Shown piece after piece: positions 1,523 to 24,418 of a stretch of DNA of 47,559 bases; positions within the stretch are counted from its first letter, which is position 1; the number at the start of each line of letters is the position of its first letter. A program made the translations under genes and the position numbers. The notes under the pieces were generated by a model, which did not search any database, was not told the origin of the DNA, and worked only from the letters and a program-made list of their open reading frames with translations. The DNA is from Gemmatimonadales bacterium (GTDB lineage: Bacteria; Gemmatimonadota; Gemmatimonadetes; Gemmatimonadales; GWC2-71-9): NCBI GenBank assembly GCA_035259785.1, contig DATFVZ010000181.1, positions 1 through 47,559 on the forward strand, given 5' to 3'.

Positions 1523-4500
1523 TCACGCCGTCGTTGCGGCGTTCTTGCCGAACCGCAGATAGAGGCTCGGTACGATGAACAGGTTCAGTAGCGTAGACGT
1601 GATCAAGCCGCCCAGCACGACGATGGCCAACGGGTGCTCGATCTCATGCCCCGGAATGCTGCCGGCCACCACGAGCGGCACGAGCGCCAGACCCGTCGCC
1701 AACGTCGTCATCAGGATCGGCGACAGCCGTTCCCGCGCTCCACGCAGCACCAGGGCTGGCCCGAAGGTTTCGCCTTCGAACCGCTCGAGATGCTGGAAGT
1801 GGTTGATCATCATGATGCCGTTGCGGGCCGCGATGCCCAGGATGGTCAGGAAGCCGACCAGCGACCCGAGCGAGACGACCCCGGTGCTGAAGTAGATCGC
1901 CAGCGCTCCGCCGACCAGCGCCGACGGGAGCGTGACGAATGAGAGTATACCGAGACGCCAGCTCTTGAAGGACGTCTCCAGCAGAAACAGGATGCCGATC
2001 GCGGCGAAGATCGCCAGGAACATGAGGGTCTTCGACGCCGCCTGCCGCTCCTTCCACTCACCCTGAAGTTCGGCGTGGTAGCCGAGCGGCAGCCTGACTG
2101 TTTGCAGCCGCTTTTCAACATCGGCCACGACTGAACCCAGGTCGCGACCCTTGGCGCTGGCCTGCACATCGAGGCGCCGCGCAGCGTTTTCGCGCTGAAT
2201 CATGTTGGCCGTCGGCTTGACGGTCACGCTGGCAACATCGGCCAGGCGCACGTGGCCCCCATCGGGCGTGTCGATGAGCATCTCGCGCACGTTGGTGAGG
2301 TTTTGCCGAGCCTCGGGGATAGACCAGACCTGCACGTCGTACACCCAGCCGTCGCGGTGAATATCCGACACTTCCGCGCCGGTCATGATGCGGTTCGCCG
2401 ACCGCAGCACCTCGCCCGGCGAGAGCCCGTAGCGATTGGCTGCCTCCACGTTCACCTTGACTTCCACGAACGGGATTTCCGTTTGCAGCTGCACGTGGAG
2501 ATCGGCGAGTCCGTCGATGCCCTCCAACGCCGCCTTCACGCTATCGGCGGCGGCGCGCAGGGTCGAGAGCTCAGGACCGAACATGCGCACGATGATGGCA
2601 TGCCCACCGCCCGTCAGGACCTCGCGAATGCGCTCCTTCAGATAGGTCTGCACGTCGCGGTAGACGCCGGGGTAGCCTTCCACGGTCTCGTGAATGGCCG
2701 CCAGCGTGGCGTCGTAGTCCACCTTCGGGTCGACGCTGATCCAGTTCTCGGTGAAGTTGATGCCGTACGGCTCGTCCCCGGTCAGCGCCCGCCCGATGTG
2801 GGCGCCGAAGTTGCGCACGCCGGGAATGGACCGCAGTTCTTTGCTCGCCGCGGCCGTAATGCGGTACATCTCCGGGTGCGAGCTGCCCGGCTTGTTGAGC
2901 CAATGCATCAGGAAGTCCCGCTCCTTGAACGACGGCAGCAGCTCCTGGCCGAGGCGAGGCACGACGAAAATGCCCGCCGCCACGACCAGGACGACCATCG
3001 CGTAGGCGGTGCGCGGAACCCGAACGATGCGCGCCAACAAGGCCTGGTAGCGAGTTTGCAGCCACCGCGCCAGTGGCGATCCGTGCTCCGTCAGCGGGGC
3101 GTTGCGCAGCAACAACAGGCCCATCGCCGGCGTCACGGTGAGCGCCACGACCAGCGAGGCCAGCACAGCGAGCGCGTAGGAGATGGCCAGCGGGCGGAAG
3201 AAGGCGCCGGACAGGCCCTGCATGAAGAACACCGGGAGCAGCGCCGTCACGTCGATCAACGTTGCGTAGATGATCGCGCTCCGTACTTCGAGCGAGCCAT
3301 CGAGGATGATGCGCCCGATGGATCGTGACGTGCCTTCCTTGCGGTATTGACGCAGTCGTCGTGTGATGTTCTCGATGTCGATGATGGCGTCATCCACGAC
3401 GACCCCGACCGAGATGACCAGCCCGGCCAGCACCATCACATTGATTGTGGCATCCCGCACGTACAACACCATCATCGCGGCCATGAGCGACAGCGGAATC
3501 GCGACGACGCTGATCACCGCGGCGCGCCAGTCGTACAGGAAGAACACGAGCACCCCGACGACCAGCAGACAGCCTAGCAGCAGGGCATTGGTGAGATTCT
3601 TGATTGACAGCTCGATGTAGGTCGCAGGCCGGAAGATCTTGGAGTCGATCTCCACCCCCGGCAGGCCGCGGCGCAGCTCCTCGATTGCCGCGTCCACCCC
3701 CTGCGTGACCTGCAGCGTGTTGGCCCAGGGCAGCTTCTCGACGATCAACATGAGACCCGGTCCATCATTGATGACCGCGTCCCCGACCAGCGGCCAGGTG
3801 TCCCAGCGGATGTTCGCCACATCACCGAGTCGCACTGTCCGGCCATTGGCCGTCTGCACGATGATCCGCTCAACGTCCTCGGGCTCGATGATGGGGGCCA
3901 CGTGCTGCATCGGGAGCCGCTGATTGGGAGTGTCGATGAAGCCCTCGGTCTGGGTCTTGGCGGAGACCGAGTACGGCAGCAAGCCCATATCGAGGGTTTC
4001 CGAGGTGACTTCGTGAATCTGCTCGAGAGACACCCGGTGCTGCCGCGCCTTCTCTGGGTCGACCTGGATCGTGAACATCTTGATCCGCTCGCCCCACATC
4101 GGCACGTTGGCGACACCTGGGACCTGAAGCAGGCGGAACTTGATCGTCCAATAGGCGATCATCGACAGGTCCATCAAATTGTACTGCTGCGACGACAGGC
4201 CGATCTTCATAACCCGGCTGGTCGCCGATAGAGGCTGCAGCATGACCGGCGGGGTGGCCGCCGCGGCCGGCAGGTTCATGACCGCCAGATTGAGCCGTTC
4301 CTGCACCATCTGTCGGGCGTGCAGGATGTCGGTGCCGCGCTTGAATTGTAGAACGATCTGCGACAACCCATTCACCGACCGGGAGCGCATCACGTCGAGC
4401 TCCGGCGTTCCCGAGAGCACGAGCTCCATGGGGTTGGTGATAAGGTCCTCGACCTCGGCCGACGACATGCCCTGGCCTTCGGTCTGGATTTCTACCTTGG

Positions 4501-4633
4501 GCGGTGCGAACTCGGGAAACACGTCGACCGCCATATGGCGCAAACGCGATTGGCCGAAGAACACTAGGGCGGCAGCCCCGGCGATGACCAGGTATCGGAA
4601 TCTCAAGCTCGAGGCCACGATCCAGCGCATCAT
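1523..4633 (-). CDS. RND efflux permease, type I subunit of module A (RND-1)
   Basis: Track ORF starts at TTG 4684. I prefer the ATG-ATG at 4628-4633 ([15 protein letters not shown]), which has a purine-rich SD ~8 nt upstream and matches the MMRLIV / MMRSLV starts of the paralogues. Twelve-TM RND layout with two large periplasmic loops, TM4 motif [14 protein letters not shown] and TM10 motif [13 protein letters not shown]. Confidence 0.9.
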
Positions 4634-4673
4634 AGGGTGGCTCTTCCTCTCGTTGGTGCGAACGTCCCAGCCA

Positions 4674-5123
4674 TTAGTGGCCAATCTCGAATTCGGCGCC
4701 GAACAATTGCAGCGCTCCTACTGTGACGACCGTCGTGCCGGCCGGTGGGCCGCTCGTCAGCACAGCCAGATCGCCGTCGATGTATTCGACCTCGATTGGG
4801 TGACGGATGTAGCGAAGCTCTTCAGGGCTGGCATATACCCACGTGCGGCCCTTCGCATCGTACAGAACGGAGGCGTAGGGTACGACGATGCGACGTACGC
4901 CGCCCGACCGACTCGTGGTCACCGACCGGACGGTCGCGGTCTCGATGCGGAGGCGCTGCGCTGCGTGCGAAGTCAGCGTCACGCGGGACACCTCAGCGCC
5001 CTGGACGTGGTCGACGGTGGCCGGCTTCTCTTTCTTCGCGGCCGCCGCCTTCGGCTTTTGGCTGCACGCCATCAGCGCCACGCCGACAGCGACCAAACAC
5101 AGAGCTCTTGTTGGCGTAATCAT
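4674..5123 (-). CDS. 149-aa lipoprotein, mini periplasmic adaptor (membrane-proximal-domain-only MFP-like), module A
   Basis: Signal peptide with lipobox-like LMAC. Paralogous to 17564..18013. N- and C-terminal segments resemble the first strand and last ~70 aa of RND adaptors (VVPYASVLYD..G..WVY...GDLAVL..G...GTTVVTVGALQLFGAE). ATGA overlap with the upstream RND stop (5120-5123). Confidence 0.75.
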   Translation of the reverse strand: MITPTRALCLVAVGVALMACSQKPKAAAAKKEKPATVDHVQGAEVSRVTLTSHAAQRLRIETATVRSVTTSRSGGVRRIVVPYASVLYDAKGRTWVYASPEELRYIRHPIEVEYIDGDLAVLTSGPPAGTTVVTVGALQLFGAEFEIGH

Positions 5124-8100
5124 TGGGTCACCTCGCTCGTCTCGGTCCCCAGACCGAGGTCCGCCTCACGGCGGGCGCCGAACCGGAGGTACAGCGCCGG
5201 AACCACGTAAAGGGTGAACACCACGGTGGTCACAAGCCCGCCCAGCATCACGGCAGCGATGGGGTGCACGATTTCGAGGCCGGTCCGGCTGCCGAAGATC
5301 ACCAGGGGCAGCAAGGCAGCCATGGTGATGAGGGACGTCACGATGATGGACATGAACCGCTCTTCCGTGCCGCGCCGTACCAGCTCGGGCCCGAACCGCA
5401 TGCCGTCCTGCTCCTCGAGGTCCTGATAGTGGCGTACGAGCATGACGCCGTGTCGTACCGCGATGGCGAGCACGCCGATGAACCCCATCAGCGAGCCGAG
5501 GGAGAGGGACGCGCCGTCGATCAACGCGCCGAACACACCACCAGCGAGCGCCGCCGGCATCGCCAGGAAGAATGCGGCTGACATGCGCCAGCTGCGGAAG
5601 GCGGCCTGCAGCAGCAACAGGATCCCGATCCCGACCGCGAGCGCAAAGCTCATCACGCGCTCCTCGGCTGCTTCCCGCTCAGCAGACTCTCCCAGCACTG
5701 CCGGGTAGTACTCGACCGGGAACTCGACATTGTCGAGGCGGCTTTCGACTTCGTCGACTACCGTGGCGAGATCGCGGCCGCGCACGTCGGCCACCACGTC
5801 GATGCGGTTCTGCAGCGCCTCGTGATGGATGACGGTGGGTGAGGGCACGATCCGCACGTCAGCCACGTCCCGCAGACGCACGTGACCACCGCGCGGGGTG
5901 TCGATGAGGAGGTTGCCGATGTCGCTCACGCTATTGCGCTTCTCGGGTACTCCCCACACGACGACGTCGAACACCCGCTGCTCTTCGAACAGGAACCCGA
6001 CGTTCAGCCCGGAGAACATCGTGGCCGCCGCGCGGCGCACGTCCCCCGGCTTCACGCCGTAGGGATCCGCTTTTGCCAGATCGACCTGAATTTCCACTGC
6101 CGGTTGCTCGACGTAGCCGGCGACATGGAGATCGACGAGTCCCGATACCGGTGCCAACGCCTCCCGCACCTCGTCCGCCTTGGCACGCAGCACGTCGCGC
6201 TTCTTGCCGTAGATGCGCACGACCACGGATTGGCTGGCTCCAGCGAGGACTTCCCGGATGGTGCCGCTCAAATAGCTCCGCACGTCGTGCGCGAGTCCCG
6301 GATATCCGTTCACGACCGAACGCACGGCGCTGACCGTCGCGTCGTAGTCGGCCGACGGAGCGATGCGGACCCACAGCTGGCTGGAATTGACCCCCACCAC
6401 CTGATCGCCGGTCACCGCCCGCCCGACGTGCACATAGGCGCCGGCGACGCCGTTGACCTTGCGCAGCTCTCGGCTCGCCAGGGTCATGATCCGTGACATC
6501 TCGGGATGGGAAGTGCCAGGCGCCCCCACCCAGTCGATCCGCAGGTACCCTTCACGGAACGACGGGAGCAGCGACTGATTCAGCAACGGCCAGATCGCGG
6601 CCCCTGCGACAATGAGAACCACTGCCGTCGCCAGCGTGGCGACAGGCACGCGGATCGTGCGCGCGAGTATCCCGCTGTAAATTCCCTGCAGGCGACCTAC
6701 GAACCCCGCTCCGCGTTGCTCGAGCGAACGACGCCGCAGCACGGCAGCCAACGCCGGCGTGACGGTCAGCGCGACTACGAGGGCGGCGAGCAAAGCGACC
6801 GTGTACGTAAGAGCCAGCGGCCGGAAGAAATCGCCCGCCACGCCTTCCATCAGGAACACCGGCACGACGGCGAGCAGGAGAATCATCGTGGCGAACAACA
6901 TCGGACCCCGTGCCCGGCCGATCTGGTCCGGGCCCCGTCCGTGACGCGTGGCGTCGACGCCGACGATGGCCTCGTCGACCACCACCGCGAGTGCGATGAC
7001 CATTCCTGCCAACACCATCGTGTTGAGCGTGCCGCCCATGTACCCGACGACAGCGCCCGCGGCGACCAGGGACAATGGGATCGTCACGAGACTGATCAGG
7101 GCTGCGCGCCAGTCGTGCAACAGCACCGTGAGGAGCACGATCGCCAGCACCGCCGCGATCACCAGCGCCTGACCGAGATTCGAGAACGCCGTCTCGATGA
7201 AGCTCGCCGAGCGATAGATCGACGGGTCGAGGTCAACCCCGGGAAGTCCGTGGCGCAGCTCTGACAGGGCCACGTCAACCCCTTTTGCTACCTCGAGCGT
7301 GTTGGCGCCGGGGAGTTTCTCGATCACGAGCAGCAGTCCCGGGCCGTCGGAAAGGACGGCGTCGCCGATCAGCGGCGGGTGTCCTTCCACCACGTTCGCC
7401 ACGTCGCCCAGCAGCAGGGAGGATCCAGCGATCCGGACCCTGGCAAGATCTTTTGGACGTGAGATCGGCAGGACATGGCGTACCTCGAGCCGCTGTTGGG
7501 GACCGTCCAGCCATCCGCCGGCCCCGGGATGCGACGCCTCGAGGTAGGTCAGCGGGGAGATCCACAGCGAGTTGCCGGTCGTCTCGATGATCTGATGTTG
7601 TGTTACGCCGTGAGCGGCGAGGCGGTCGGGATCGAACTGCACTTGCAGTTGCCGATCACGGTCGCCCCACACGGCCACATTCGCGACGCCGGGGATGCCC
7701 AGCAGCCTGGGCTTGATCGTCCAACGCGCGAGGACGGACAGGTCCATCAGGGGAACCGTCTTCGACGATAGCCCGATCATCGCGACGCGGCTCGTCGCCG
7801 AGAGCGGCTGGATCATGATCGGCGCTTTGGAGGCGTTGGGCAGCGCGTAGGCGCCGGTCAGGCGTTCCTGCACCATCTGCCGCGCCCGCCAGATGTTGGT
7901 GCCAGGCTCGAAAATCATCATGATCGACGACATGCCCGGCACGGACTTGGAGCGCATGGTCTCGAGCCACGGCACTCCCGCGAGCAGCTCCTCGACGTTC
8001 AGCGTCACCAGGTTTTCCACCTCGGTGGCGGAAAGTCCCAGCGCCTCAGTCTGGATTTCGATGTAGGGCGGGGCGAACTCCGGTAGTGCGTCCACCGGCA

Positions 8101-8200
8101 TGTTTCGTACGCGCCCGATGCCGAGCACCATGACGACCACAGCGGCGGCCACCACGAGAACGCGGAGTCTCACACTTGCTTCGATGATGTGACGGATCAT
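5120..8200 (-). CDS. RND efflux permease, type II subunit of module A (RND-2), divergent TM4 region
   Basis: 1026-aa ORF, MIRHIIEASVRLRVLVV...PVDALPEFAPPYIEIQTEALGLSA. RND topology. TM4 motif reads VVVDEAIVGVDATRHGRG, followed by a ~15-aa deletion relative to the three paralogues. TM10 reads AIAVRHGVMLVRH. Confidence 0.9.
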   Translation of the reverse strand: MIRHIIEASVRLRVLVVAAAVVVMVLGIGRVRNMPVDALPEFAPPYIEIQTEALGLSATEVENLVTLNVEELLAGVPWLETMRSKSVPGMSSIMMIFEPGTNIWRARQMVQERLTGAYALPNASKAPIMIQPLSATSRVAMIGLSSKTVPLMDLSVLARWTIKPRLLGIPGVANVAVWGDRDRQLQVQFDPDRLAAHGVTQHQIIETTGNSLWISPLTYLEASHPGAGGWLDGPQQRLEVRHVLPISRPKDLARVRIAGSSLLLGDVANVVEGHPPLIGDAVLSDGPGLLLVIEKLPGANTLEVAKGVDVALSELRHGLPGVDLDPSIYRSASFIETAFSNLGQALVIAAVLAIVLLTVLLHDWRAALISLVTIPLSLVAAGAVVGYMGGTLNTMVLAGMVIALAVVVDEAIVGVDATRHGRGPDQIGRARGPMLFATMILLLAVVPVFLMEGVAGDFFRPLALTYTVALLAALVVALTVTPALAAVLRRRSLEQRGAGFVGRLQGIYSGILARTIRVPVATLATAVVLIVAGAAIWPLLNQSLLPSFREGYLRIDWVGAPGTSHPEMSRIMTLASRELRKVNGVAGAYVHVGRAVTGDQVVGVNSSQLWVRIAPSADYDATVSAVRSVVNGYPGLAHDVRSYLSGTIREVLAGASQSVVVRIYGKKRDVLRAKADEVREALAPVSGLVDLHVAGYVEQPAVEIQVDLAKADPYGVKPGDVRRAAATMFSGLNVGFLFEEQRVFDVVVWGVPEKRNSVSDIGNLLIDTPRGGHVRLRDVADVRIVPSPTVIHHEALQNRIDVVADVRGRDLATVVDEVESRLDNVEFPVEYYPAVLGESAEREAAEERVMSFALAVGIGILLLLQAAFRSWRMSAAFFLAMPAALAGGVFGALIDGASLSLGSLMGFIGVLAIAVRHGVMLVRHYQDLEEQDGMRFGPELVRRGTEERFMSIIVTSLITMAALLPLVIFGSRTGLEIVHPIAAVMLGGLVTTVVFTLYVVPALYLRFGARREADLGLGTETSEVTQ

Positions 8201-8217
8201 AGCTGTCTACTCCTCGT

Positions 8218-9294
8218 TCAGAATGTGACCATCGCGTTCAGGCGCAACCGTGTCTGGAAGTCGTCAGCTGGTTCGTGGTGCCGGTAGTAGTACAGCGTCG
8301 CCGTCAGGAGCGTATTGGCGCGCGGTGTCATATCAAACGACAGCGTGTGGGTGTCGGAGTTGGTCCCGATCGTGGTGTTGTCGTGGGCGAACGCCGCCAG
8401 GATCGCGTCGGTCTCGACCGCTGCGTACCCATAGCGCGCGCGGATGTCGCCTTTGCTCCCTGTCTTGCCGACGTACACGTCCCCGCTGAACCCCGTATTG
8501 AGATCGCTGGCGCCGTCATTCTTCACGTATTCGCCGACGAAACGCAGGGGGAAGCGTGTTCCGGACCTCGAATAGTCGAGGATGACCAATCCGTCGATGA
8601 GATTGAAATCCGACAGATAAACGGCGCCTCCAGGAGCCAGACGGTTGCCTCGCACGTCGCCCGAGACGCTGGCGCTCGCGAGGCTGCTCATGCGGTAGTT
8701 GTAGTACGCCGCCGCGCCCTGGACACGCCAGTTTTTGCCGGCGGCCGCGTTCACTGCGAGCTGCGCGCCTCCCATGTCGCTGGTCGAGTCGCCCTGCCGC
8801 TGGTCAACAATGAAGTACATGGCGGTTAGGTTGGTCGTCACGCCGGGAGCTTTCCCGAACTTCAGGCGCCCACCCGCTCCTTGCGGGTTCACATCGCCAT
8901 CCCAGACCATCTCGGTCGTCAGAAACGGATTTGTGAATTTGCCCGCGAACGCTCCAAACCTCGGACGAGTGAATTCCACCGAAGCAAGGTCCAGAGTGAA
9001 CGCCAGATCGTTCACGAAGCTCGTGAGTGTGACGTCCGTGGAGTTGGGATCGTCCGGATCACCGGTTGCGATACGGGCCCGAACCGTAATGTCTTCCTGC
9101 AGCGCGTAGGTTGCGCCGAGCCGGAACCGGACGACTTCGCGCGCGCGCAGAGCGGCGGGAACGTCGGTGTTGTGCTCGTAGCGCACGCGAAAATCACCGT
9201 TGAAGCGTAATGCGGCCGGCGTCGGCGTCTGGGCGGCGGCCGGTCTCACCGCGAAGAGGCCGGCCGCCACGATTACCACCAAAGTGTCCCTCAT
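8218..9294 (-). CDS. Outer-membrane beta-barrel (putative porin family)
   Basis: 358 aa with signal peptide MRDTLVVIVAAGLFAVRPAAAQ. Alternating beta-strand pattern, aromatic-rich strands and C-terminal ...RLRLNAMVTF ending in Phe. Lies 17 nt upstream of RND-2. Confidence 0.7.
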   Translation of the reverse strand: MRDTLVVIVAAGLFAVRPAAAQTPTPAALRFNGDFRVRYEHNTDVPAALRAREVVRFRLGATYALQEDITVRARIATGDPDDPNSTDVTLTSFVNDLAFTLDLASVEFTRPRFGAFAGKFTNPFLTTEMVWDGDVNPQGAGGRLKFGKAPGVTTNLTAMYFIVDQRQGDSTSDMGGAQLAVNAAAGKNWRVQGAAAYYNYRMSSLASASVSGDVRGNRLAPGGAVYLSDFNLIDGLVILDYSRSGTRFPLRFVGEYVKNDGASDLNTGFSGDVYVGKTGSKGDIRARYGYAAVETDAILAAFAHDNTTIGTNSDTHTLSFDMTPRANTLLTATLYYYRHHEPADDFQTRLRLNAMVTF

Positions 9295-9301
9295 GTGTTA
9301 T

Positions 9302-9310
9302 CCCCCCCCC
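9302..9310 (-). repeat. Homopolymer G9 (C9 on plus strand) in the ribosome-binding region of the porin gene
   Basis: Directly read: tccccccccc at 9301-9310. On the coding strand this is GGGGGGGGG-ATAACAC-ATG. Confidence 0.9.
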
Positions 9311-13422: not shown

Positions 13423-14381
13423 TTCATCGCCTTCGTGGTGAGGTCGAGGAACACGTCCTGCAGGCGTCCGCTCTGCGGTTCGAAGCCCAGGATCGGGATC
13501 CCGGCCCGAATCAGGGCGTCCAGAATCTTGTTGCTGAGGTGGTCACCATCTCCAGCCACTCCCTCCACTTCAAGCCGTAACCAACCCGGCTGGCCCGTCC
13601 CGCTGACAACCCGCTTGACGGGAGACAACAGTTCCAGTTCGCGCTGCGCGGCCGCCACGGCGGGCACGGGAACGCGGACTCGGATGACGTTTCGCTCGGC
13701 CCTGCCGGTCACGTCGCCGACTGGCCCCTGCGCAACGACTTCACCGGAGCTCAGGATGACCACGTCGTCGCAGACGGCTTCGACTTCGGGCAGCATGTGG
13801 CTGCAGAGGATGATGGCGGCGTTCCGCTCGCGCGCGATTCGCTTGACCAGCTCGTTGAGCTCCTGCTGGCCCTTGGGATCGAGCCCCAGAGTCGGCTCGT
13901 CGAGAAACACGACCGACGGATCGTTGACGAGAGCCCGTGCAATGCCGATGCGTTGGCGCATGCCGTGACTGTAGGATCCGACCAGCGACTTGCCGCGCTG
14001 CCCCAGCCCCACCTCATCCAGCAACTGGAGGCCGTACTCCCGCGCGTCGCGTGCGGTGCGCCCGTAGAGCTGTCCGAAGAACGTCAAGTACTCGATCCCA
14101 GTCATTTGCTTGGGGAGGCCGAAGCTTTCGGGCAGCACCCCGATGACCCGGCGAATTTGCTCCGGGTTCGTATGGGGAATGCCGGCCACCTCGAACCGGC
14201 CGCCGTCCGGCTCCATGATCGTCGTGAGCATGCGGATCGACGTGGTTTTCCCGGCGCCGTTGGGGCCGAGGAAGCCGAGGATGCGACCCGACTTCAATGA
14301 GAAGGACAGGTCGCGTACAGCCAATCGCGGACCGTAGAACTTTTTCAGGTGGTCAGCGACGAGAACGTTTTGCTGGTTCAT
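13419..14381 (-). CDS. ABC transporter ATP-binding protein (ABC-2 exporter type)
   Basis: Walker A GPNGAGKTT, signature YSHGMRQRIGIARAL, Walker B VVFLDEPTLGLD, H-loop CSHML, plus a C-terminal extension. SD GGAAAGGGAG lies upstream. Confidence 0.95.
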   Translation of the reverse strand: MNQQNVLVADHLKKFYGPRLAVRDLSFSLKSGRILGFLGPNGAGKTTSIRMLTTIMEPDGGRFEVAGIPHTNPEQIRRVIGVLPESFGLPKQMTGIEYLTFFGQLYGRTARDAREYGLQLLDEVGLGQRGKSLVGSYSHGMRQRIGIARALVNDPSVVFLDEPTLGLDPKGQQELNELVKRIARERNAAIILCSHMLPEVEAVCDDVVILSSGEVVAQGPVGDVTGRAERNVIRVRVPVPAVAAAQRELELLSPVKRVVSGTGQPGWLRLEVEGVAGDGDHLSNKILDALIRAGIPILGFEPQSGRLQDVFLDLTTKAMK

Positions 14382-17400: not shown

Positions 17401-17541
17401 CACGCGCGGTGGCGCGAACTCCGGGAAGGCATCCACGGAGACCTTGGAGTGCTGCGTCAGACCGTATGCCATCATCGCCGTGGCGAGTGCCAGGACGATG
17501 AACCGAAACCTTAGGCTCGCGCCTACAATCAACCGCATCAT
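14407..17541 (-). CDS. RND efflux permease, type I subunit of module B (RND-3)
   Basis: Track ORF extends to 17610. I prefer ATG-ATG at 17536-17541 ([16 protein letters not shown]). It is the closest paralogue of RND-1. TM4 reads [14 protein letters not shown] and TM10 reads [13 protein letters not shown]. Confidence 0.9.
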
Positions 17542-17563
17542 GGGTCGAGTCTCCGGTGCTGGG

Positions 17564-18013
17564 TTACTCTTCCTCGAACTCTTCTTCGGAGCCGAACAAC
17601 TCTGCCGCACCGACCGTCACCACCGTGGTGCCAAGCCGCGGCGCCATCGAGAGAATCGCGAGGTCCCCGTCGACGTAGTCGATCGTGACCGCAGCCCGAA
17701 CGAACGCGAGCGACTCAGTGCTCGTGTACACCCAGGTGTTGCCTTCCTTGTCATACAGGATCGCTGCGTAGGGCACGACCGTGCGGAGCGTCCCCTTCAC
17801 TTGCATGGACCGCACCGTAGTGGTCTGGATGTCGAGCCGCTGGGCTGCCTCCGCCGTCAGAATCACCCGCTTGAGCTCGCTTCCGTCGATCGCCTCTACC
17901 TTGACAGCGCGGCTTCCCGTTTCCTCGGCTTCGGAAGTCCTTGGCGCACACCCTCCAAGCGGAAGACACGCGACCAACAGGCCCGCCATCACCGACAGTT
18001 GTTTGTAGCTCAC
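17564..18013 (-). CDS. 149-aa lipoprotein, mini periplasmic adaptor (membrane-proximal-domain-only MFP-like), module B
   Basis: Signal peptide with lipobox PLGGC. The sequence RVILTAEAAQRLDIQTTTVRSMQVKGTLRTVVPYAAILYDKEGNTWVY...GDLAILSMAPRLGTTVVTVGAAELFGSE aligns by eye to the N-terminal strand and C-terminal domain of the CusB adaptor in this window. Confidence 0.75.
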   Translation of the reverse strand: MSYKQLSVMAGLLVACLPLGGCAPRTSEAEETGSRAVKVEAIDGSELKRVILTAEAAQRLDIQTTTVRSMQVKGTLRTVVPYAAILYDKEGNTWVYTSTESLAFVRAAVTIDYVDGDLAILSMAPRLGTTVVTVGAAELFGSEEEFEEE

Positions 18014-18068
18014 CGTTCCCCCTGGTCAGACTGGGTCATTGATGCTCCATGCGACGAATGATTATCCC

Positions 18069-21000
18069 TCAATCGGCGCCACTCATCGCGGCGGCCTCCG
18101 ATAGCCCCTCAGGCCCTGCCAAGTCCATGTCGGGTGCAGCAGCGACGCCGGCGGCGACGTACAGAGTCGGAAGAACGAACAGGTTCACGAGTGTCGACGT
18201 GACCAGGCCGCCCACCAGGACCACCGCCATGGGATGGACGATTTCCAGACCGTTCCTGTCTCCCAAGAACCAGGCAGGCAGGAGGGCCGCAGCGGCGGCG
18301 AACGCTGTCATGAGAATCGGCACGAATCGTTCGCCGGCGCCCTGCATAGCCAAGGCCGAACCGAACGCAGCACCGTCCCGCAGCTGCAGATCTCGATATC
18401 GTTTCATCAGCAGGATGGCGTTGCGTGCCGCGATCCCGAATAGTGCGAGGAAGCCGACGAGCGAGCCGAGCGAAATGACGCGGCCCGCGCCCAGCGCCGC
18501 GATCAAACCACCCGCGAGCGTGGCAATCAGGGTCACGTAGGCGAGCCCCGCCAGACGCCAACTCCCCAAGGCGGCCTGCAGCAGCAGGAGAATCCCAAGC
18601 AATACGCCCACCGAGAGGGCGAGCATGCGCTGCTCTGCGGCGTGTCGGTCGGCGTACGCGCCGAGCACTTCGGCGTGATACTCGAGGGGCATCGGGACTT
18701 GCAGGAGACGACTCTCGATGTCCGCCGCGACCGCACTGATTTCGCGCCCCCGAACGCCGGCGAGCACATCCACGTACCGCTTGACGGCTTCGTGACGGAT
18801 GACATTGGGGCTCGACACGACACGGACATGCGCCACGTCGCCAAGCCGTACGCGTGTTCCGCTGGGCGTGTCGATCAGTAGGTCGTTAACACTGCGGAGG
18901 CTGTGGCGAGTCGCCGGCATGCCCCACACGACCACGTCGAACACCTTTTGCTCTTCGAACAGGTTCCCGACCTGCAGGCCGGAAAACATCGTGGCCGCGG
19001 CGCGCCGGACGTCCCCCGGCTTGATACCGTAGCGCTGGGCCGCGGACATATTCACTTCAATTTCCATGGTCGGCTGTTGAACCGGGGAATTGATGCGCGC
19101 CCCGGCAACTCCCTGAATGCCGGCGATGGCCGTCTTGACATCCGCGGCCGCGCGAGCGAGCAGCTGGTCGGCGTCGCCATACACTCGGACGACGATCGAG
19201 TCGTTCGATCGGCCAAGCAGCACGTCTCGGCGCTCGCCCAGATAGGTCCGCACATGCGGATGCAGTCCCGGATAGCCCTGCACCACGTTCCGAATGTCCG
19301 CCACGGTCCGGTCATAGTCGGCCGAACGGGCGATGCTCACCCACACCTCGGCGGAATTGACATCGACCACTTGGTCCCCGAAAATGGCGCGCCCGACGTG
19401 AGCGCCGACGTCGGTCACTCCAGGAATGGATCGCAGCTCATGACTGACCCGGCTCGAGATGCGACTCATCTCCGGTTGCGAGGTGCCGGGTACACTGCTC
19501 AACTGAATCACGAGGTCCCGCTCCGCAAACTTCAGCTGAGCAGACCGCCGCAGGATCGGCAACGTGGCGACGCCCGCGACTAGGAGAACGGCTAGCGTGA
19601 GCAGCGCCATGCCCGGTCGCGCGATCATGCGTGTCAGCCCACGCTCATATGCCTGGCGGAGCCGCAGCACCGGGGGGGCCGCACGGTCGGCCGACGCACG
19701 AGCAATTAGAATCAGGCACAGTGCGGGAGTGACCGTCAGCGCTACTATCATCGAGGCGAGCACGGCCAGTCCGTAGGAGACCGCCAGCGGCTCCCAGAAC
19801 GCTCCGGGGAGCCCTCCGAGCACAAACATCGGCGCTACCGCGAGCAGCAGGATCAGCGTGGCGAACACGGTGGCGCTTCGCAGCTCGGCCACTGCACCGA
19901 GAATGACCGTCAGCGCTGACGGGGCGCTGCCCCCGCCGCCCTGACGTGACTGCCGGAGCCGACGCCCGATGGTGTCGACGTGAGTGATCGCGTCATCCAC
20001 GACGACCCCGATCGCCATGAAGAACCCGGCCACGATCATCACGTTCACCGTGACCCCGCGCAGCGCCAGCACCAGCCCGCCAACCACCATGGACAACGCG
20101 ATCGCCGTCGTGCCGATCACGACGGAGCGCCAGTCGAAAAAGAAGAAGGCGAGAACCAGAACCACGAGACCGAACCCAACCAGCGCGGCCCAACCGACGT
20201 TGCTGATCGACGTTTCGACAAAGGCCGCCGGTTGAAAGAGGGTCGAGCTCATCTCGAGGCCGGACAGACCCGGACGGAGCTCCGTGAGCGCTTGATTGAC
20301 CCCGCGGGTAACGTCGCGGAGGTTCGTTCCCGGGAATCGGTCGACGACCAGGAGGAGGCTGGATTGATCGCCGGTGAGTGCGTCGCCAATGAGTGGCTGA
20401 TGCCCTTCCACCACATCGGCCACGTCACCCAGGCGCACGCCGGTGGCCGCGATTGGTACCTGCGCCAGACCCTCCGGTGACACGATCGGAAGGATGTGAC
20501 GGATTCCGAGTCGCTGATTGGCATTATCGATGAACCCGCCGGTGCCGGGAGTGGACGCCTCGACGAAACTCAGCGACGACACCCACAGCGCGTTCCCGGT
20601 GGTTTCGAGGACCTGGAGCAAGGACACGCCCCGGTTGCGCAGCCGCTCGGGGTCCGCGAGGACCTGCAGCTGCCGATCGCGCTGCCCCCAGATCGCCACA
20701 TTGGCGACCCCGGGGACACCCAGCAAACGGGGAGCGATCGTCCAGCGGGCGAGCACGGACATCTGGATCAGGGACAAGTCCTTCGACGAGAGCCCGATGA
20801 GCATGATCCGGCTCGTCGACGACATGGGCTGGAGCATGGTGGGCGGCTTCGACACGTGAGGCAACGCGAACGCCTGCGTGAGGCGCTCCGATACCATCTG
20901 GCGTGCCCGCATGAGGTCGGTCCCCGGCTTGAACACCAGGAGGATTGACGACAGTCCCGTAAGTGACTCGGAGCCGATCGTGTGGAGCCAGGGCACGCCG

Positions 21001-21224
21001 TTCAACAGGTCCTGTTCCAGCGGCACGGTGATCAACTGTTCCACTTCCTGCGCGGAGAGCCCGAGGGCTTCGGTCTGGATCTCGACGAGCGGCGGAGAAA
21101 ACTCGGGCAGGACGTCCACCGGAATGGTGCGCAACTGCCGAACGCCGAGTCCGATCAACGCGGCGGCGACCACGACCACTGGGACGCGAAACTTCAGGCT
21201 CCACGTAACGAGCGAACGCATCAT
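18069..21224 (-). CDS. RND efflux permease, type II subunit of module B (RND-4)
   Basis: 1051 aa, MMRSLVTWSLKFRVPVV, with SD GGGAGGAAG. It is the closest paralogue of RND-2 (shared GVPWL, RDRQLQV, VEGH.PLIGDA). TM4 reads [18 protein letters not shown] (ENI replaced by DTI) and TM10 reads GIAARNAILLMKR. Confidence 0.9.
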   Translation of the reverse strand: MMRSLVTWSLKFRVPVVVVAAALIGLGVRQLRTIPVDVLPEFSPPLVEIQTEALGLSAQEVEQLITVPLEQDLLNGVPWLHTIGSESLTGLSSILLVFKPGTDLMRARQMVSERLTQAFALPHVSKPPTMLQPMSSTSRIMLIGLSSKDLSLIQMSVLARWTIAPRLLGVPGVANVAIWGQRDRQLQVLADPERLRNRGVSLLQVLETTGNALWVSSLSFVEASTPGTGGFIDNANQRLGIRHILPIVSPEGLAQVPIAATGVRLGDVADVVEGHQPLIGDALTGDQSSLLLVVDRFPGTNLRDVTRGVNQALTELRPGLSGLEMSSTLFQPAAFVETSISNVGWAALVGFGLVVLVLAFFFFDWRSVVIGTTAIALSMVVGGLVLALRGVTVNVMIVAGFFMAIGVVVDDAITHVDTIGRRLRQSRQGGGGSAPSALTVILGAVAELRSATVFATLILLLAVAPMFVLGGLPGAFWEPLAVSYGLAVLASMIVALTVTPALCLILIARASADRAAPPVLRLRQAYERGLTRMIARPGMALLTLAVLLVAGVATLPILRRSAQLKFAERDLVIQLSSVPGTSQPEMSRISSRVSHELRSIPGVTDVGAHVGRAIFGDQVVDVNSAEVWVSIARSADYDRTVADIRNVVQGYPGLHPHVRTYLGERRDVLLGRSNDSIVVRVYGDADQLLARAAADVKTAIAGIQGVAGARINSPVQQPTMEIEVNMSAAQRYGIKPGDVRRAAATMFSGLQVGNLFEEQKVFDVVVWGMPATRHSLRSVNDLLIDTPSGTRVRLGDVAHVRVVSSPNVIRHEAVKRYVDVLAGVRGREISAVAADIESRLLQVPMPLEYHAEVLGAYADRHAAEQRMLALSVGVLLGILLLLQAALGSWRLAGLAYVTLIATLAGGLIAALGAGRVISLGSLVGFLALFGIAARNAILLMKRYRDLQLRDGAAFGSALAMQGAGERFVPILMTAFAAAAALLPAWFLGDRNGLEIVHPMAVVLVGGLVTSTLVNLFVLPTLYVAAGVAAAPDMDLAGPEGLSEAAAMSGAD

Positions 21225-21249
21225 CGCTGGCTTCCTCCCACTGCTGCTG

Positions 21250-22158
21250 TCATGGGTTCGACGCCCGCGCCGCGGGCGGGGTATTCGCGTAGACCGCTTT
21301 ACTGCGGCGATAGCCGCTTTGCTCCAGCTTCAGCGCCTGCACCCGCACGTCGGCCAGCGCCGTGGCGTCGAGCTTCTCGATGCGGGTCAACTCCAGAACC
21401 TCCTGGGTTTTCTCACCTGCCCCTGTCCAACCGACCCGCACATTGCCGACGTCGCGCGCGTAGTACTTGAGCTGCTGTGCGTCCGGCTCCCCCGCGCTGG
21501 TCTCTGCGATGACCAGCACGTCGTCGTAGCAGCCGGCCTTGACGCAGGTCTTCTGGCTCACCTGGTGCACCTGGCCCCGATCCGTCCAGTCGACGGCCGG
21601 CCCCCAACCTTCCGCATAACTCGGCGTGCCCATCTGCGGCGCGGCCAGCATCATGGTGCCGGCTAAGGCGCCTTCGAACCCGTGAATCCAGGGCCGGGCA
21701 GCGACGAACTTCCCGTCCTCGTATTCCTCGGTGTATTCACCCAAGTACCAGACCGCGCCGGTGCTGTCCTGCGCGTACAAGGCGAGCTCCGCCTCCACCA
21801 GCTCGTTGTTGATGTAGTCCAGATCCCAGGTGACGAGTGCGCGAACGCCCGCGATTTCCTTCGTCAGATCGGTCACGTTGACGACGATGCGATGGGGAGA
21901 GGTCGTGCCATCGTCCTCCACGCTCGTTCCCTCATAGACGAAGCGCGTCCCGGGCTTGAGCGGCATCCAGGGATTGTCGATCACGCTTGGACGGACGAAC
22001 CTCTTTGCGTCAAAGGTCTCGGGCGGCGGCGCGCTGCTTGGGGGATCAGCGCGGCGCTCTTGCGCTCCGCTGCAGCGGACCACCAGCATCGCGCACCCGA
22101 GAACTCCGATGAAAGACGCCAGCGCGGACCGTCCCGTCGACCTAGAGGCGATAGGCAT
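21250..22158 (-). CDS. Secreted or membrane-anchored hypothetical protein
   Basis: 302 aa with an N-terminal hydrophobic segment (ALASFIGVLGCAMLVV). ATG at 22156-22158 overlaps the upstream stop by 17 nt. No family recognised (NPWMPLKPGTRFVYEG...). Confidence 0.55.
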   Translation of the reverse strand: MPIASRSTGRSALASFIGVLGCAMLVVRCSGAQERRADPPSSAPPPETFDAKRFVRPSVIDNPWMPLKPGTRFVYEGTSVEDDGTTSPHRIVVNVTDLTKEIAGVRALVTWDLDYINNELVEAELALYAQDSTGAVWYLGEYTEEYEDGKFVAARPWIHGFEGALAGTMMLAAPQMGTPSYAEGWGPAVDWTDRGQVHQVSQKTCVKAGCYDDVLVIAETSAGEPDAQQLKYYARDVGNVRVGWTGAGEKTQEVLELTRIEKLDATALADVRVQALKLEQSGYRRSKAVYANTPPAARASNP

Positions 22159-24418
22159 ATTGGGCCTTTACGAGCAGCTGGTTGGATTGAAATGCGAAGC
22201 GATTATCGAGCTGTCGCAGCTGGTTGTGATTGTAGACGACGAACAACTCACCCAGGGGGTTGAAGGTCCAGCGCAGCCGGGTGTTGGTGCCGAAGTTGCG
22301 GCTTTCGTTGTCGTATTGCAGGAAGCTGGCGAGCTGCAAGTCTGGGGAGACGTTGACTTGTATGCGGGTGCTGTACAGCGACTGGATGAATTCGCCGCCG
22401 GACAGCCGGCCGCTGTTGCGCTCCGCGCCGAGCTCTGCGATGAAATAGGCTGATGGCTTGACCCGGAATGTGAATGCGCTGCTGTTCAGGTAGCCGTCGT
22501 AGAAGGTGCCCAGCGAGTACGAGGCCTCGCCGCTGATCCTGCGCTTCTCGGCGAATGCGGCCTGGAAATTGTAGCGGGTCCAGTCGTAACTGCCCGCGGT
22601 AATGGTTACCGTCTGCGTTTCTGAGCTGAAGACGTCAAAGTCTTCCGCCGGCCGATCACCCGTGGGCTCGACGGTGAACTCGAACCGATCCCCGCTTTCC
22701 AACTGCCAATCGAACGGCTTGGCGCTCACCAGATAGCTCTCCCAGGTGCCGCTCAGGTCGGTGACCAAGAGCGGATTGAGCTCGAAGAACATCTGGCGCA
22801 CCAACCCCCAATTGGGCCGTGGCTTGAACGCCAGCTCCATCTGCATTTCCTGAACGCCGGTGCGCGGGACGAACGAGAGGGAGGGCTGGAAGCGCTCGCC
22901 GATATGTCTGTACTGCAGCGAGGCATCCCACAGGTCGTTGGGGTAATCGATCATGCCACCGTACGCGTCATCACGCCCCAGGTCGTCACGGTGGTTCCAC
23001 AGCCCCCACACGCCGACCAGCAAATTCTTTTCGCCTTGGAATTCCGACGTCTGGTAGGTGAAGTCCACACCACCCATCCGGCTGCCCGGCCGCGAGAGCG
23101 GATCGCCGGCCGTCCCAATGAACCCCACCGAGGATTCGGACAGGACGTTCTGCTTGACGCGCACGACTCCCATCGTCGCGTCCGTCGGCAAGTCACTGAC
23201 GGTATTCGTGCGCACCGCAAGAGCGCCGACATTGGTATTCCCCACGCGGCCGTTCATCTTGCCGCCCGCGATGATGGGGACCTCCACCTGTCCCTCTTCT
23301 TCCCCCAGCAGTCCGATGCGGCGACTGAAAAAGGCGACGAGATCCTCTCCCGTGCCGAGACCGAACTCGAAAATGTCCGCGCCTTCGAGAAAGAACGTGC
23401 GCTTTTCCGGGAACAGGAGATCGAAGCGCGTCAAATTCGTCTGGCGCGCGTCGACTTCGGTTTCAGCAAAATCCGTGTTGACGGTCAGTGAGCCCAACAG
23501 ATTGGGACCGAATCGCTTGTTCGCATCCAGGCTGACTTCGGTCTTGTAGGTCCGGTCCGCGGTCGGTTCGGGCCGATCGGCGTTGCCAACGATCGCCGGC
23601 CGAATACTCAGACCGAGCCCGAGATCGAAGTTCGGGAGGTCCGTAATCAACCCGGCGTGACTGGTCTGATAGATCTCGTAGTCGCGGTTCGCGCCCGCCC
23701 AGCGACTGGTCTCCTGGAGGCGCTGAACCCGGCGCTGCAGGTTGAACCCCCAGCTGGTGAGACCCTTCTTGAAGCTGAGACTCTTGATGGGGATGCGAAT
23801 TTCGACGCTCCAACCCGTACTGTCACGCGACGTTTTGGCTTCCCACACCGCATCCCACTGGCTGTTGACCTCTTCTCCACCCGCGGACACCAGGCCGTCG
23901 AACCGCGCCCCGTTGGCATTGACGGCGAACACGTACCCGCTGCGACCGTCCTGGAATGGATCCAGCACGATCATCACGTGATCTTCGAATTCGAGCTCAG
24001 AGTCACGCGCCTTGGAAAAGGCAACGATGCCTGCCGGGTTTGAGTCCCGGCACACCACGCCGATGACGAGCTCGCTCGCATCGGTCAGGACCTTCACGGT
24101 CGTTTGCCCCGCGGGAACGCCGCCCTCTTCCGGCTCGATCATCGTGAGGTTCGCGATGGAGTCGGCAGTGCTCCACACGGGCTCGGCCAGCTTGCCATCG
24201 AGTGAGAGCTCGGTCGCCAAGGCACTCGCGTGCAGCGAGAATGCTGGGTAGGAATGCGCGGGTTCGTCATTTCTGCGACGCGAGCGACGGAAAGTGCTGG
24301 AAGCAAATGCGGCGGGTGAAGCCGCTGCTTTGGCAGGCCCGTCCTGCGCTTTCGCGCATGGGACGAGCCCTGCGAAACACGCAGCGACCGCTGGGGCGAG
24401 AGTGAGCCGACCGAACAC
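22142..24418 (-). CDS. Outer-membrane protein with an N-terminal CBM9-like (DOMON-like) domain and a large beta-barrel (DUF5916-type)
   Basis: 758 aa with GTG start, GAGGAAG upstream and a signal peptide. The N-terminal LDGKLAEPVWSTADSI...VMIVLDPFQDGRSGYVFAVNANG...WDAVWEAKTSRDSTGWSVEIRIPIKSL matches my memory of the carbohydrate-binding-family-9 / DUF5916 architecture. The remainder is beta-strand-rich and ends ...LLVKAQYAYRL. Confidence 0.75.
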   Translation of the reverse strand: MFGRLTLAPAVAACFAGLVPCAKAQDGPAKAAASPAAFASSTFRRSRRRNDEPAHSYPAFSLHASALATELSLDGKLAEPVWSTADSIANLTMIEPEEGGVPAGQTTVKVLTDASELVIGVVCRDSNPAGIVAFSKARDSELEFEDHVMIVLDPFQDGRSGYVFAVNANGARFDGLVSAGGEEVNSQWDAVWEAKTSRDSTGWSVEIRIPIKSLSFKKGLTSWGFNLQRRVQRLQETSRWAGANRDYEIYQTSHAGLITDLPNFDLGLGLSIRPAIVGNADRPEPTADRTYKTEVSLDANKRFGPNLLGSLTVNTDFAETEVDARQTNLTRFDLLFPEKRTFFLEGADIFEFGLGTGEDLVAFFSRRIGLLGEEEGQVEVPIIAGGKMNGRVGNTNVGALAVRTNTVSDLPTDATMGVVRVKQNVLSESSVGFIGTAGDPLSRPGSRMGGVDFTYQTSEFQGEKNLLVGVWGLWNHRDDLGRDDAYGGMIDYPNDLWDASLQYRHIGERFQPSLSFVPRTGVQEMQMELAFKPRPNWGLVRQMFFELNPLLVTDLSGTWESYLVSAKPFDWQLESGDRFEFTVEPTGDRPAEDFDVFSSETQTVTITAGSYDWTRYNFQAAFAEKRRISGEASYSLGTFYDGYLNSSAFTFRVKPSAYFIAELGAERNSGRLSGGEFIQSLYSTRIQVNVSPDLQLASFLQYDNESRNFGTNTRLRWTFNPLGELFVVYNHNQLRQLDNRFAFQSNQLLVKAQYAYRL

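Follow-up and report, generated by a model that had tools for sequence, protein, structure and literature searches.

The textbook AcrB-type pump in the class named resistance-nodulation-division (RND) is a tripartite machine of diderm bacteria, for which a four-domain adaptor and a TolC-type duct are needed. In mycobacteria, an RND transporter (MmpL), a small accessory protein (MmpS) and a LolA-fold lipoprotein (the LolA-like LppX or LprG) move lipids outward without a TolC-type duct, and the Lol and Lpt systems rely on an ATP-binding cassette (ABC) exporter, a carrier of half-barrel or jellyroll shape in the periplasm, and an acceptor or barrel in the outer membrane to move hydrophobic cargo. 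Known heteromeric RND pumps have been reported as confined to one proteobacterial clade of the HAE-1 (hydrophobe/amphiphile efflux) family: in a 2024 phylogeny, from which Gram-positive phyla were excluded, tandem RND permeases only occur in the MdtBC/MuxBC/SmeJK clade (PMC10872679). Regarding Gram-positive adaptors, a 2015 review described them as keeping their hairpins, YknX being then the sole one known with a membrane-proximal (MP) domain (PMC4446572). Here, we studied a twelve-gene cluster (positions 1523-24418) of a 47,559-nt contig (DATFVZ010000181.1) of a Gemmatimonadales bacterium (GCA_035259785.1), the whole of which is called the window below. We hold, with moderate confidence, that this cluster is a composite of a conserved and uncharacterised envelope export system, the core of which consists of two RND subunits (RND-A and RND-B), an adaptor reduced to its MP domain and a partner protein, X302. 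In diderms, Porin_5 and CBM9/DUF5916 barrels and, usually, a DrrA/GldA-like ABC-2 exporter are added to this core. The system would most likely be an outer-membrane-factor-independent, heteromeric and proton-driven exporter of a hydrophobic or amphiphilic substrate.

A sequence-only reading of the window had listed twelve open reading frames (ORFs) on the minus strand, and every one of them was found at the coordinates claimed. The spacing of 55 nt or less given in that reading is correct as an upper limit (-47 to +55 nt as called), but the overlaps of 47 and 11 nt are artefacts of choosing the longest ORF: because homologue alignments and Shine-Dalgarno-like sequences place the starts of RND3 and RND1 at 17541 and 4633, respectively, the corrected lipoprotein/RND gaps are of 22 nt (lipoB/RND3) and 40 nt (lipoA/RND1). 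Pfam searches of the products yielded the ACR_tran, ABC, Porin_5 and DUF5916 assignments included below.

22142..24418, minus strand: G1, CBM9-like and DUF5916 secreted protein of 758 aa (Pfam, signal peptide)
21250..22158, minus strand: G2 (X302), secreted or lipoprotein carrier of 302 aa (no Pfam family; LolA-like predicted fold)
18069..21224, minus strand: G3 (RND4), A-type RND subunit of module 2 (ACR_tran, E 2.8e-170)
17564..18013, minus strand: G4 (lipoB), adaptor lipoprotein of module 2, MP domain only (lipobox LGGC)
14407..17541 (longest ORF to 17610), minus strand: G5 (RND3), B-type RND subunit of module 2 (ACR_tran, E 5.7e-214; GGAG motif at start)
13419..14381, minus strand: G6, ATPase of an ABC-2 type exporter, DrrA/GldA-like (ABC_tran, E 8.5e-27)
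11710..13422, minus strand: G7, double ABC-2 permease of 570 aa (two ABC2_membrane_2 stretches)
9329..11683, minus strand: G8, double ABC-2 permease of 784 aa (two ABC2_membrane_2 stretches)
8218..9294, minus strand: G9, Porin_5 outer-membrane beta-barrel (E 5.1e-22)
5120..8200, minus strand: G10 (RND2), A-type RND subunit of module 1 (ACR_tran, E 2.8e-178)
4674..5123, minus strand: G11 (lipoA), adaptor lipoprotein of module 1, MP domain only (lipobox LMAC)
1523..4633 (longest ORF to 4684), minus strand: G12 (RND1), B-type RND subunit of module 1 (ACR_tran, E 5.1e-218; GAGGA motif at start)

The two small lipoproteins, lipoA and lipoB (149 aa each, both with a lipobox and 47% identical to each other), match no model of Pfam (HlyD_D23, HlyD_3 and HlyD_D4 included) or NCBIfam. 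They have many relatives of ~145 aa, all without a name, which share an N-terminal motif (...VTLT..AA.RL.I.T..V) and a C-terminal one (VVPYAAVLYD..G.TWVY...VVTVGAAELFGAEFEIGH). When a profile of 48 homologues was compared to the PDB, only membrane-fusion proteins (MFPs) were matched, at their C-terminal MP region (TriAB, E 0.0065; 4L8J). The AlphaFold2 (AF2) model of lipoA, with a predicted local distance difference test score (pLDDT) of 86.5, is a single small beta domain, for which the top 35 Foldseek matches in the PDB are all MFPs; the matches include CusB, a SilB MP-domain construct, TMexC, AcrA, MexA, TriAB, ZneB, BesA and MacA, and the local alignments to adaptors have root-mean-square deviations (rmsd) of 1.6-3.0 A over 60-83 columns.

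In adaptors of the four-domain architecture, the barrel, lipoyl and hairpin domains lie between the MP segments (PMC4446572). A tblastn search of plasmids with an Arthrobacter mini-adaptor matched the C-termini of genes annotated as “efflux RND transporter periplasmic adaptor subunit” (41% identity, E 1e-12). One of these adaptors, of 409 aa, is part of a TolC-MFP-RND operon on the Hymenobacter plasmid pHA, the RND of which is 50% identical to RND1 and RND3; it ends with ...ELFGTEFGGSH and is 46% identical to lipoA across the last 71 residues. Using phmmer, two separate segments of this adaptor could be aligned to the mini-proteins in most loci: residues ~17-75 of the adaptor correspond to mini-protein residues ~16-70 and residues ~330-409 to ~70-148, while residues ~76-330, the whole stretch from one MP segment to the other, lack an equivalent in them (lipoB is a member of the alignment used as query in the two-segment comparison and in the fold search). 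By sequence, fold and two-segment alignment, the mini-lipoproteins are thus shown to descend from a four-domain adaptor that lost its barrel, lipoyl and hairpin domains. The earlier claim that the cluster lacks a full-length adaptor is right in that no HlyD-family domain is found in the cluster, but incomplete in that the mini-lipoproteins are themselves minimal adaptors; the stronger version, in which there would be no adaptor at all, is rejected by the PDB profile, the fold matches and the two-segment alignment. A CusF-like or other metallochaperone identity of the mini-lipoproteins is unsupported, since they match adaptors only.

A profile search of 1.84 billion representatives returned 1906 clusters (50% identity) at E<=1e-10. 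Among the best 150 of these matches, 90 do not exceed 200 aa, 52 have 201-310 aa and eight are longer. The class of 201-310 aa (about 250 aa) keeps the MP domain and the barrel, with a strongly acidic linker instead of the lipoyl and hairpin domains, and such intermediates suggest a stepwise loss of domains. Intermediate adaptors of this kind, of ~240-290 aa, were observed at L075 1945-2676 and L079 9530-10258 and as P0245, P0254 and P0264 (L designating related loci and P proteins matched by the profile). In the PLSDB plasmids, no copy of the RND-adaptor-RND triplet was found, and only canonical full-length adaptors were matched.

All four RND proteins match ACR_tran (PF00873) over profile positions ~2-1020 with 569-727 bits for a cut-off of 28 (E 1e-170 to 1e-218); a match to PF03176 in RND3 is weak and partial. 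The proposed pairing of RND1 with RND3 and of RND2 with RND4, at about half of identical positions, is borne out for the former (58.4% identity), whereas the latter (50.2%, for 49.6% between RND3 and RND4) is set by the tree with relatives alone. In this neighbour-joining (NJ) tree with bootstrap, computed from 69-73 RNDs, those encoded upstream of the adaptor all fall in one clade (A) and those encoded downstream all fall in another one (B), with RND2 and RND4 in A and RND1 and RND3 in B. RND4 is sister to the A-type RND of L086 (66% identity, bootstrap 100), RND2 groups with Gemmatimonadales A-type RNDs (bootstrap 100), and canonical single RNDs (Hymenobacter, L077) are nearest to the B-type. 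Because upstream and downstream RNDs separate in this way, the A/B duplication predates the phyla.

The two subunits are not equally conserved. Between loci, the mean identity is 63% for B-B versus 51% for A-A comparisons, B exceeding A in 99.3% of locus pairs. The transmembrane helices (TM) TM4, TM10 and TM11 of the B-type are nearly invariant from Arthrobacter to Gemmatimonadales, and its relay is composed of VVDDAI (TM4) and AARN (TM10), the R of which we take to sit at the position of AcrB K940. The A-type keeps this relay only partly: many lineages no longer have the IEN motif, and some (Arthrobacter, Amycolatopsis) lack the DD pair. In the window, TM4 reads VVDDAITHVDTI in RND4, where IEN is lost (VDTI), and VVDEAIVGVDAT in RND2, where IEN is replaced by VDAT. 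The AcrB-like relay residues first noticed by eye, DD in TM4 and ARN/VRH in TM10, are thus present. Such an asymmetry fits an obligate A/B heteromer in which B would carry the proton coupling.

To examine the distribution of the system, genomes were scanned using one genome per species, which returned 552 matching stretches; the counts given here rest on the 80 best loci and their flanks of +/-10 kb. These loci are found in Gemmatimonadota, Acidobacteriota, Bacteroidota, KSB1 and several Proteobacteria, in Methylomirabilota, Rokubacteria and Planctomycetota, and in monoderms, namely Actinomycetota (Arthrobacter, Pseudarthrobacter, Micromonospora, Amycolatopsis), Chloroflexota and Saccharibacteria. 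The order RND>adaptor>RND of the two window triplets is that of most loci in many phyla. It is strictly adjacent in 42 of the 59 loci with enough flank, and most of the remaining ones, chiefly from Gemmatimonadales, have ABC genes between RND-A and the adaptor. As anticipated, neither TolC nor a full-length adaptor is a conserved neighbour: a TolC homologue occurs in a single locus out of 83 (L077, where the adaptor is full-length and only one RND is present), no OEP or HlyD family recurred when 58 unlabelled ORFs of 330-560 aa from diderm flanks were scanned with Pfam, and no HlyD-family or OEP domain was detected by Pfam in the cluster itself or at 24.4-40.5 kb. The neighbourhood results thus run counter to what the sequence-only reading had named as its own refutation.

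Regarding regulation, a NarL/GerE-type response regulator adjoins the system in Gemmatimonadales, Arthrobacter and Amycolatopsis, often with a HisKA_3 kinase of ~589 aa with multiple TM (L002 1-2354, L086 337-2106, L087 1107-3516, L044 5741-6430, L049 4535-6909); no NarL/HisKA_3 pair lies near the cluster in the window. Five of the 58 unlabelled ORFs from diderm flanks are Sigma54_activat activators, some with HTH_8, in loci among L004-L081, and sigma-54 activators may be an alternative regulator in some lineages.

X302, the product of G2, has no family in Pfam or NCBIfam and more than 2666 homologues, all unnamed and devoid of Pfam domain. It carries a signal peptide or a lipobox and shows 73 invariant columns among 34 sequences. 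The top Foldseek matches of its AF2 model (pLDDT 79) are YmcC-like proteins, LolA/LolB, LolA3, VioE, DUF1849, DUF1329, RseB and EPDR1 (ependymin-related lipid/carotenoid binders), with E-values of 8.5e-7 to 1e-2 and a probability of ~1. X302 is found in 41 of the 80 loci, and about half of the loci have it as a direct neighbour of the triplet. Moreover, three profile matches are fusions of the adaptor with X302: P0266 (417 aa), P0279 (525 aa) and P0248 (500 aa). P0266 is made of residues 1-73 matching the adaptor, then X302 (57% identity to G2 over 252 aa), then residues 346-414 matching the adaptor again, so that X302 is nested at the very junction where the canonical domains were lost; P0279 is similar, and P0248 is an adaptor followed by an X302-like domain. 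Each of them is flanked by RNDs of the same family, P0248 lying between two. Since a nested X302 cannot be produced by read-through of neighbouring genes, it argues for a physical association with the adaptor, and X302 is the fourth core part of the system. As for the layout of P0279 (L089 269-1846), the bulk of X302 comes first, then a second X302 N-terminal segment, then barrel-like and MP parts, which would reflect a permuted or duplicated insertion, unless the 2.9-kb contig was misassembled. The suggestion that the machine exports a lipid, glycolipid or polymer gains from the LolA-like predicted fold of X302, which favours a hydrophobic cargo, but no neighbour names the substrate.

In diderms, the core is accompanied by barrels. 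G1 matches DUF5916 (PF19313) with 34.7 bits for a cut-off of 22.6, over profile positions 47-96 of 572 only, and CBM9_1 with 25.2 bits for 23.4; it has a signal peptide and ends with ...QYAYRL, the end of its relatives being ...YAYRF, i.e., a beta-signal of the outer-membrane protein (OMP) type, and is a probable outer-membrane beta-barrel. It is 73% identical to its L086/L087 orthologues, of which it misses the first ~270-290 residues. With 758 aa, G1 is devoid of the N-terminal ~270-385 residues of orthologues of 965-1082 aa (L086 2399-5374, L002 16523-19771), and no remnant of the missing part was found elsewhere in the window. G9 matches Porin_5 (PF16930) with 78.6 bits for a cut-off of 22, has a signal peptide, ends with ...RLRLNAMVTF, likewise an OMP-type signal, and is 58-61% identical to its L002/L086 orthologues. 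Across loci, Porin_5 is present in 14 of 42 diderm and 0 of 38 monoderm ones, and DUF5916 in 15 of 42 and 0 of 38, respectively. In relatives, a PepSY-like protein of 103-108 aa precedes Porin_5 (L002 13583-13906, L085 13900-14211, L086 18121-18447); the window lacks this protein, G8 and G9 being only 34 nt apart.

The ATPase G6 (ABC_tran, 94.9 bits) has drrA (242 bits) and GldA as best NCBIfam models, both below cut-off, and is 70% identical to its L002/L086 orthologues. Both permeases, G7 and G8, have two ABC2_membrane_2 stretches (98 and 115 bits). G7 is a fusion of two L086 permeases of ~280 aa. The C-terminal ~195 aa of G8 (9329-9920) comprise an extra TM and a last TM, with ~130 aa of beta-rich extracytoplasmic domain between them; this extension is kept in L086, L012 and L085, without match in Pfam or the PDB. 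PDB sequence searches with G1, the 784-aa permease and a further protein described below, ds197, gave no meaningful match. ABC-2 permeases are found in 18 diderm and three monoderm loci, the linked genes following a varying order in Gemmatimonadota, Bacteroidota, KSB1, Micromonospora and Chloroflexia. The idea of an ABC-2 exporter flanked by RND modules as a design must therefore be abandoned, as the gene order is fluid among relatives while the content is kept.

The history of the window itself also differs from what was first proposed. Instead of a block duplicated in place, each module is closer to other genomes than to its window partner: RND3 is 84% identical to its L086 counterpart versus 58% to RND1, and RND1 is 81-86% identical to those of L002/L004, so that in-situ duplication is rejected. 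In the relatives of the lipoB module (L085-L087), the order is DUF5916 - X302 - RND-A - adaptor - RND-B - ATPase - P283 - P280 - P784 - (PepSY-like) - Porin_5 - 61-aa gene, with a divergent HisKA_3/GerE two-component system ahead of DUF5916. The correspondence with L086 is as follows.

L086 DUF5916: G1, 73% identity
L086 X302: G2, 71% identity
L086 RND-A: RND4, 66% identity
L086 adaptor: lipoB, 55% identity
L086 RND-B: RND3, 84% identity
L086 ATPase: G6, 70% identity
L086 P283 and P280: the two halves of G7, 60% and 67% identity, respectively
L086 P784: G8, 49% identity
L086 Porin_5: G9, 61% identity
L086 61-aa gene: ds58, 56% identity

RND2, lipoA, RND1 and ds197 match another lineage, with 69%, 64%, 81% and 62% identity to L002, respectively; the identity of the RND2/lipoA/RND1 triplet to the L002/L004 lineage is put at 69-86%, lipoA standing at 64% (L002). 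The order in L002 is X302 - RND-A - ATPase - P1 - P2 - adaptor - RND-B - PepSY - Porin_5 - ds197 - ds58 - ... - DUF5916, and the triplet is contiguous in L004. Because G1-G9 and ds58 match L086 while RND2, lipoA, RND1 and ds197 match the L002/L004 lineage, the window holds a complete nine-gene system (G1-G9), into which a second-lineage triplet (plus ds197) was inserted after Porin_5 and before ds58. Neither triplet looks damaged.

The remaining features around the twelve genes are the following.

24419..24881, minus strand: upstream non-coding leader, probable promoter region (GC drop to 50-57%)
1450..1476, no strand: perfect GC inverted repeat of 10 nt in the 209-nt gap after RND1 (sequence)
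705..1313, minus strand: ds197, secreted protein of 202 aa, syntenic in Gemmatimonadales (homologues in relatives)
499..708, minus strand: ds58, protein of 69 aa with two predicted membrane helices (ATGA overlap with ds197)

The leader is low in GC as described, with 50-57% versus about 63-65% elsewhere. It matches no Rfam family at its threshold, a riboswitch or other known RNA being unsupported, and no sigma-70-like consensus site was found when looked for in it. In the 209-bp gap, the GC hairpin exists as the perfect inverted repeat, but without a T-run beside it; it was not scored as a terminator, and an intrinsic terminator is rejected. Placing the end of the cluster at 1523 was premature, as the conserved gene set runs on with ds197 and ds58, which are syntenic in relatives. 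The former is 62-65% identical to genes found after Porin_5 in L002 and L001, occurs in seven loci and has no match in Pfam or the PDB, while the latter is 56% identical to the 61-aa gene located directly after Porin_5 in L086 and 36% identical to a 72-aa gene of L002. Just upstream of the leader, the same strand encodes a 197-aa protein of no family (24882-25475, -) and a 491-aa DUF11/PD40-repeat protein (25509-26984, -), neither of which has a counterpart adjoining the system in relatives. Further away, the ORF 28451-29455 (+) combines a sphingolipid delta4-desaturase N-terminal domain (Lipid_DES, E 7e-10) with FA_desaturase, which is unusual in a bacterium and may be relevant to the envelope lipid chemistry of the organism. 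Finally, a metal-resistance block (40566-47543, -) comprises a partial OEP (46890-47543), a HlyD_D23 adaptor (45721-46893), a CusA-like RND (42620-45724) and a P-type (E1-E2) ATPase (40566-42623, 4-nt overlap). As the sequence-only reading had it, the cus-like operon in there does have its own adaptor and TolC (ACR_tran, HlyD_D23 and OEP at 42620-47543), and its RND is only ~25% identical to each of the four cluster RNDs.

We propose that A and B form a mixed, proton-driven inner-membrane trimer, in which B would be the conserved proton-coupled subunit. The MP domains of AcrA, CusB and MacA bind and activate their transporters at the porter domain; likewise, the lipid-anchored MP domain would only dock on the porter domain or activate the pump, without reaching an outer-membrane duct. 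X302 would sit above the adaptor, beside the periplasmic domain of the pump, and take or deliver the hydrophobic or amphiphilic cargo. In diderms, this cargo might cross or reach the outer membrane via the Porin_5 and DUF5916 barrels, and the ABC-2 exporter might feed this route from the cytoplasm. Across phyla, B and X302 are very highly conserved, which suggests one conserved substrate rather than a broad drug efflux. Going further, and only tentatively, the system could be a trans-envelope trafficking route common to monoderms and diderms, in which a heteromeric A/B pump, held by a one-domain adaptor, would pass a lipid or another hydrophobic component of the envelope on to a LolA-like carrier that sits on this adaptor and, in diderms, further to the barrels (Porin_5, DUF5916); it would be an RND counterpart of Lol, Lpt and MmpL, not a drug or metal pump.

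At face value, the relatives of known structure might rather suggest an efflux system of the HME (heavy-metal efflux) kind without outer-membrane factor, which would take metal ions out of the membrane or periplasm and release them to the periplasm or the wall, X302 being an unrelated neighbour or a metallochaperone. RND1 is nearest to ZneA (5e-103) and CusA (7.5e-95), ahead of HAE-1 pumps (about 1e-74), CusA/CzcA is the best NCBIfam model for the RNDs, and the best fold matches of the adaptor are CusB and the SilB MP construct; moreover, the adaptor ends with a conserved acidic/His tail (EFEIGH), RND1 keeps two acidic residues aligned to ZneA D602/E610, and a cus-like operon with a P-type ATPase lies 16-18 kb away. 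Yet, the CusA/CzcA model TIGR00914 scores 425-542 bits only (RND4 425.6, RND3 542.3, RND2 454.1) for a cut-off of 701.45, the HME signature of TM4, DFG-X3-DGA-X3-VEN for HME1/2 (PMC3637150), is absent from the cluster RNDs, the DD/R residues of which are AcrB-like, and the CusA triad Met573/623/672 aligns to H/F/V in RND1. The partner, X302, has a LolA-like predicted fold, and the flanks examined show no MerR, ArsR or CusRS-type regulator and no metal gene, the regulators being NarL-type two-component systems or sigma-54 activators. Hence, that the RNDs are “not obviously metal pumps” holds for the missing HME signatures, but overall they are closer to ZneA/CusA than to AcrB. The HAE-1 models are below cut-off too (TIGR00915, 230-337 for 940; NF033617, 382-492 for 1250), as are the MdtB/MdtC models NF007798 and NF007905 (173-263 for 1584 and 1774), and the cluster RNDs are a separate clade between HME and HAE-1. 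All in all, we regard metal efflux as unlikely. An ordinary tripartite pump that borrows a distal TolC-family channel, and perhaps a full-length adaptor, like AcrAB and MdtABC, may also be considered: RND pumps commonly have their outer-membrane factor encoded at a distance, the genome of the window has at least one OEP gene, and canonical relatives with TolC, full-length adaptor and single RND exist (L077, L084). However, an adaptor without hairpin, lipoyl and barrel domains has nothing to reach or open a channel with, the triplet is common in monoderm phyla, which have no outer membrane, and the canonical relatives have a single RND instead of an A/B pair, which makes this option highly improbable.

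Alternatively, separate machines might simply travel together, i.e., a pair of RND pumps for drugs or solvents, one ABC-2 exporter and two porins, without common pathway or complex. The gene order varies by lineage, many loci have the RND-adaptor-RND triplet alone within +/-10 kb, and ABC-2 and porin families are generally common, all of which would agree with such an assemblage. On the other hand, the gene content is equal in Gemmatimonadota, Bacteroidota, KSB1 and a Zhuqueibacter metagenome-assembled genome despite shuffling, ABC genes lie between RND-A and the adaptor in one Gemmatimonadales lineage, Porin_5 and DUF5916 track the diderm/monoderm divide exactly, and the close spacing of the genes (55 nt or less) suggests a single transcript, so that we find this explanation quite improbable. 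The envelope export system that we favour has points against it as well. The bootstrap proportions of the RND clades in the NJ tree are only moderate (A 71, B 67), and the closest RND and adaptor structures come from metal pumps. Within +/-10 kb, many loci lack X302, the ABC-2 genes and the barrels, which are thus possibly accessory. The all-against-all clustering of flank ORFs yielded no recurrent biosynthetic gene to name the cargo. The Foldseek matches of X302 have low template-modelling scores (0.2-0.49) and rmsd of about 10 A or more, even if the fold class of the top ~30 is uniform, and P0266, P0279 and P0248 come from short metagenomic contigs. Heteromer formation, the contact between adaptor and pump, and the role of X302 are all things that we infer, and the outer-membrane factor of a pump may be encoded at a distant site.

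As it stands, the family has hundreds to thousands of members in at least ten phyla, including Actinomycetota and Chloroflexota. It would represent a second, much older origin of two-subunit RND pumps, with an adaptor stripped to its pump-contacting domain, and offers a natural experiment on the own role of the MP domain (pump activation or assembly) and on RND function without a duct. If an envelope lipid is the cargo, abundant soil phyla would have a new pathway of envelope biogenesis; if a toxin is, Actinomycetota would have a new kind of intrinsic resistance determinant. Cultured carriers of the core genes are Pseudarthrobacter sp. S9, Arthrobacter pascens DSM 20545, Amycolatopsis xylanica and Micromonospora.

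The initial statement that no characterised system has this composition agrees with the open-access literature that we searched on DUF5916, Porin_5, truncated or MP-only adaptors, monoderm RND and LolA-like partners, in which no such system is described. While the kind of machine is RND efflux, the one-domain adaptor architecture, the partner protein X302 and the second origin of two-subunit RND pumps are apparently new. Compared to known systems, MdtABC, MuxABC-OpmB and SmeIJK are similar in having two paralogous RND genes (~47-50% identical) per operon, which stem from one ancient duplication and are unequally conserved, suggesting a division of labour (PMC10872679); in contrast, they have a full-length adaptor, TolC or OpmB, and adjacent RND genes, and belong to another clade (HAE-1 “clade B”), whereas our cluster has its one-domain adaptor encoded between the two RND genes, and the system extends to monoderms. 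Loss of domains in an RND adaptor has a precedent in BesA of Borrelia, also a fold match of the mini-adaptor (rmsd 1.6-2.2 A over ~60-65 columns), but BesA retains three domains (lipoyl, barrel and MP) and still operates with BesC as its channel, where here only the MP domain is left and no channel is linked (PMC4446572). By sequence and fold, CusCBA and ZneCBA are the closest systems of solved structure, both for the RNDs and for the MP domain of the adaptor, yet the cluster differs from them in having no HME signature in TM4, no methionine triad, no score above cut-off, no full-length adaptor and no outer-membrane factor. MmpL belongs to another RND family (HAE-2), without A/B pair, and MmpS does not derive from a membrane-fusion protein. 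Finally, in comparison with Lol and Lpt, to which no sequence relationship was detected, the motor includes RND pumps, the ABC component is of the ABC-2 type, and the core is also present in monoderms.

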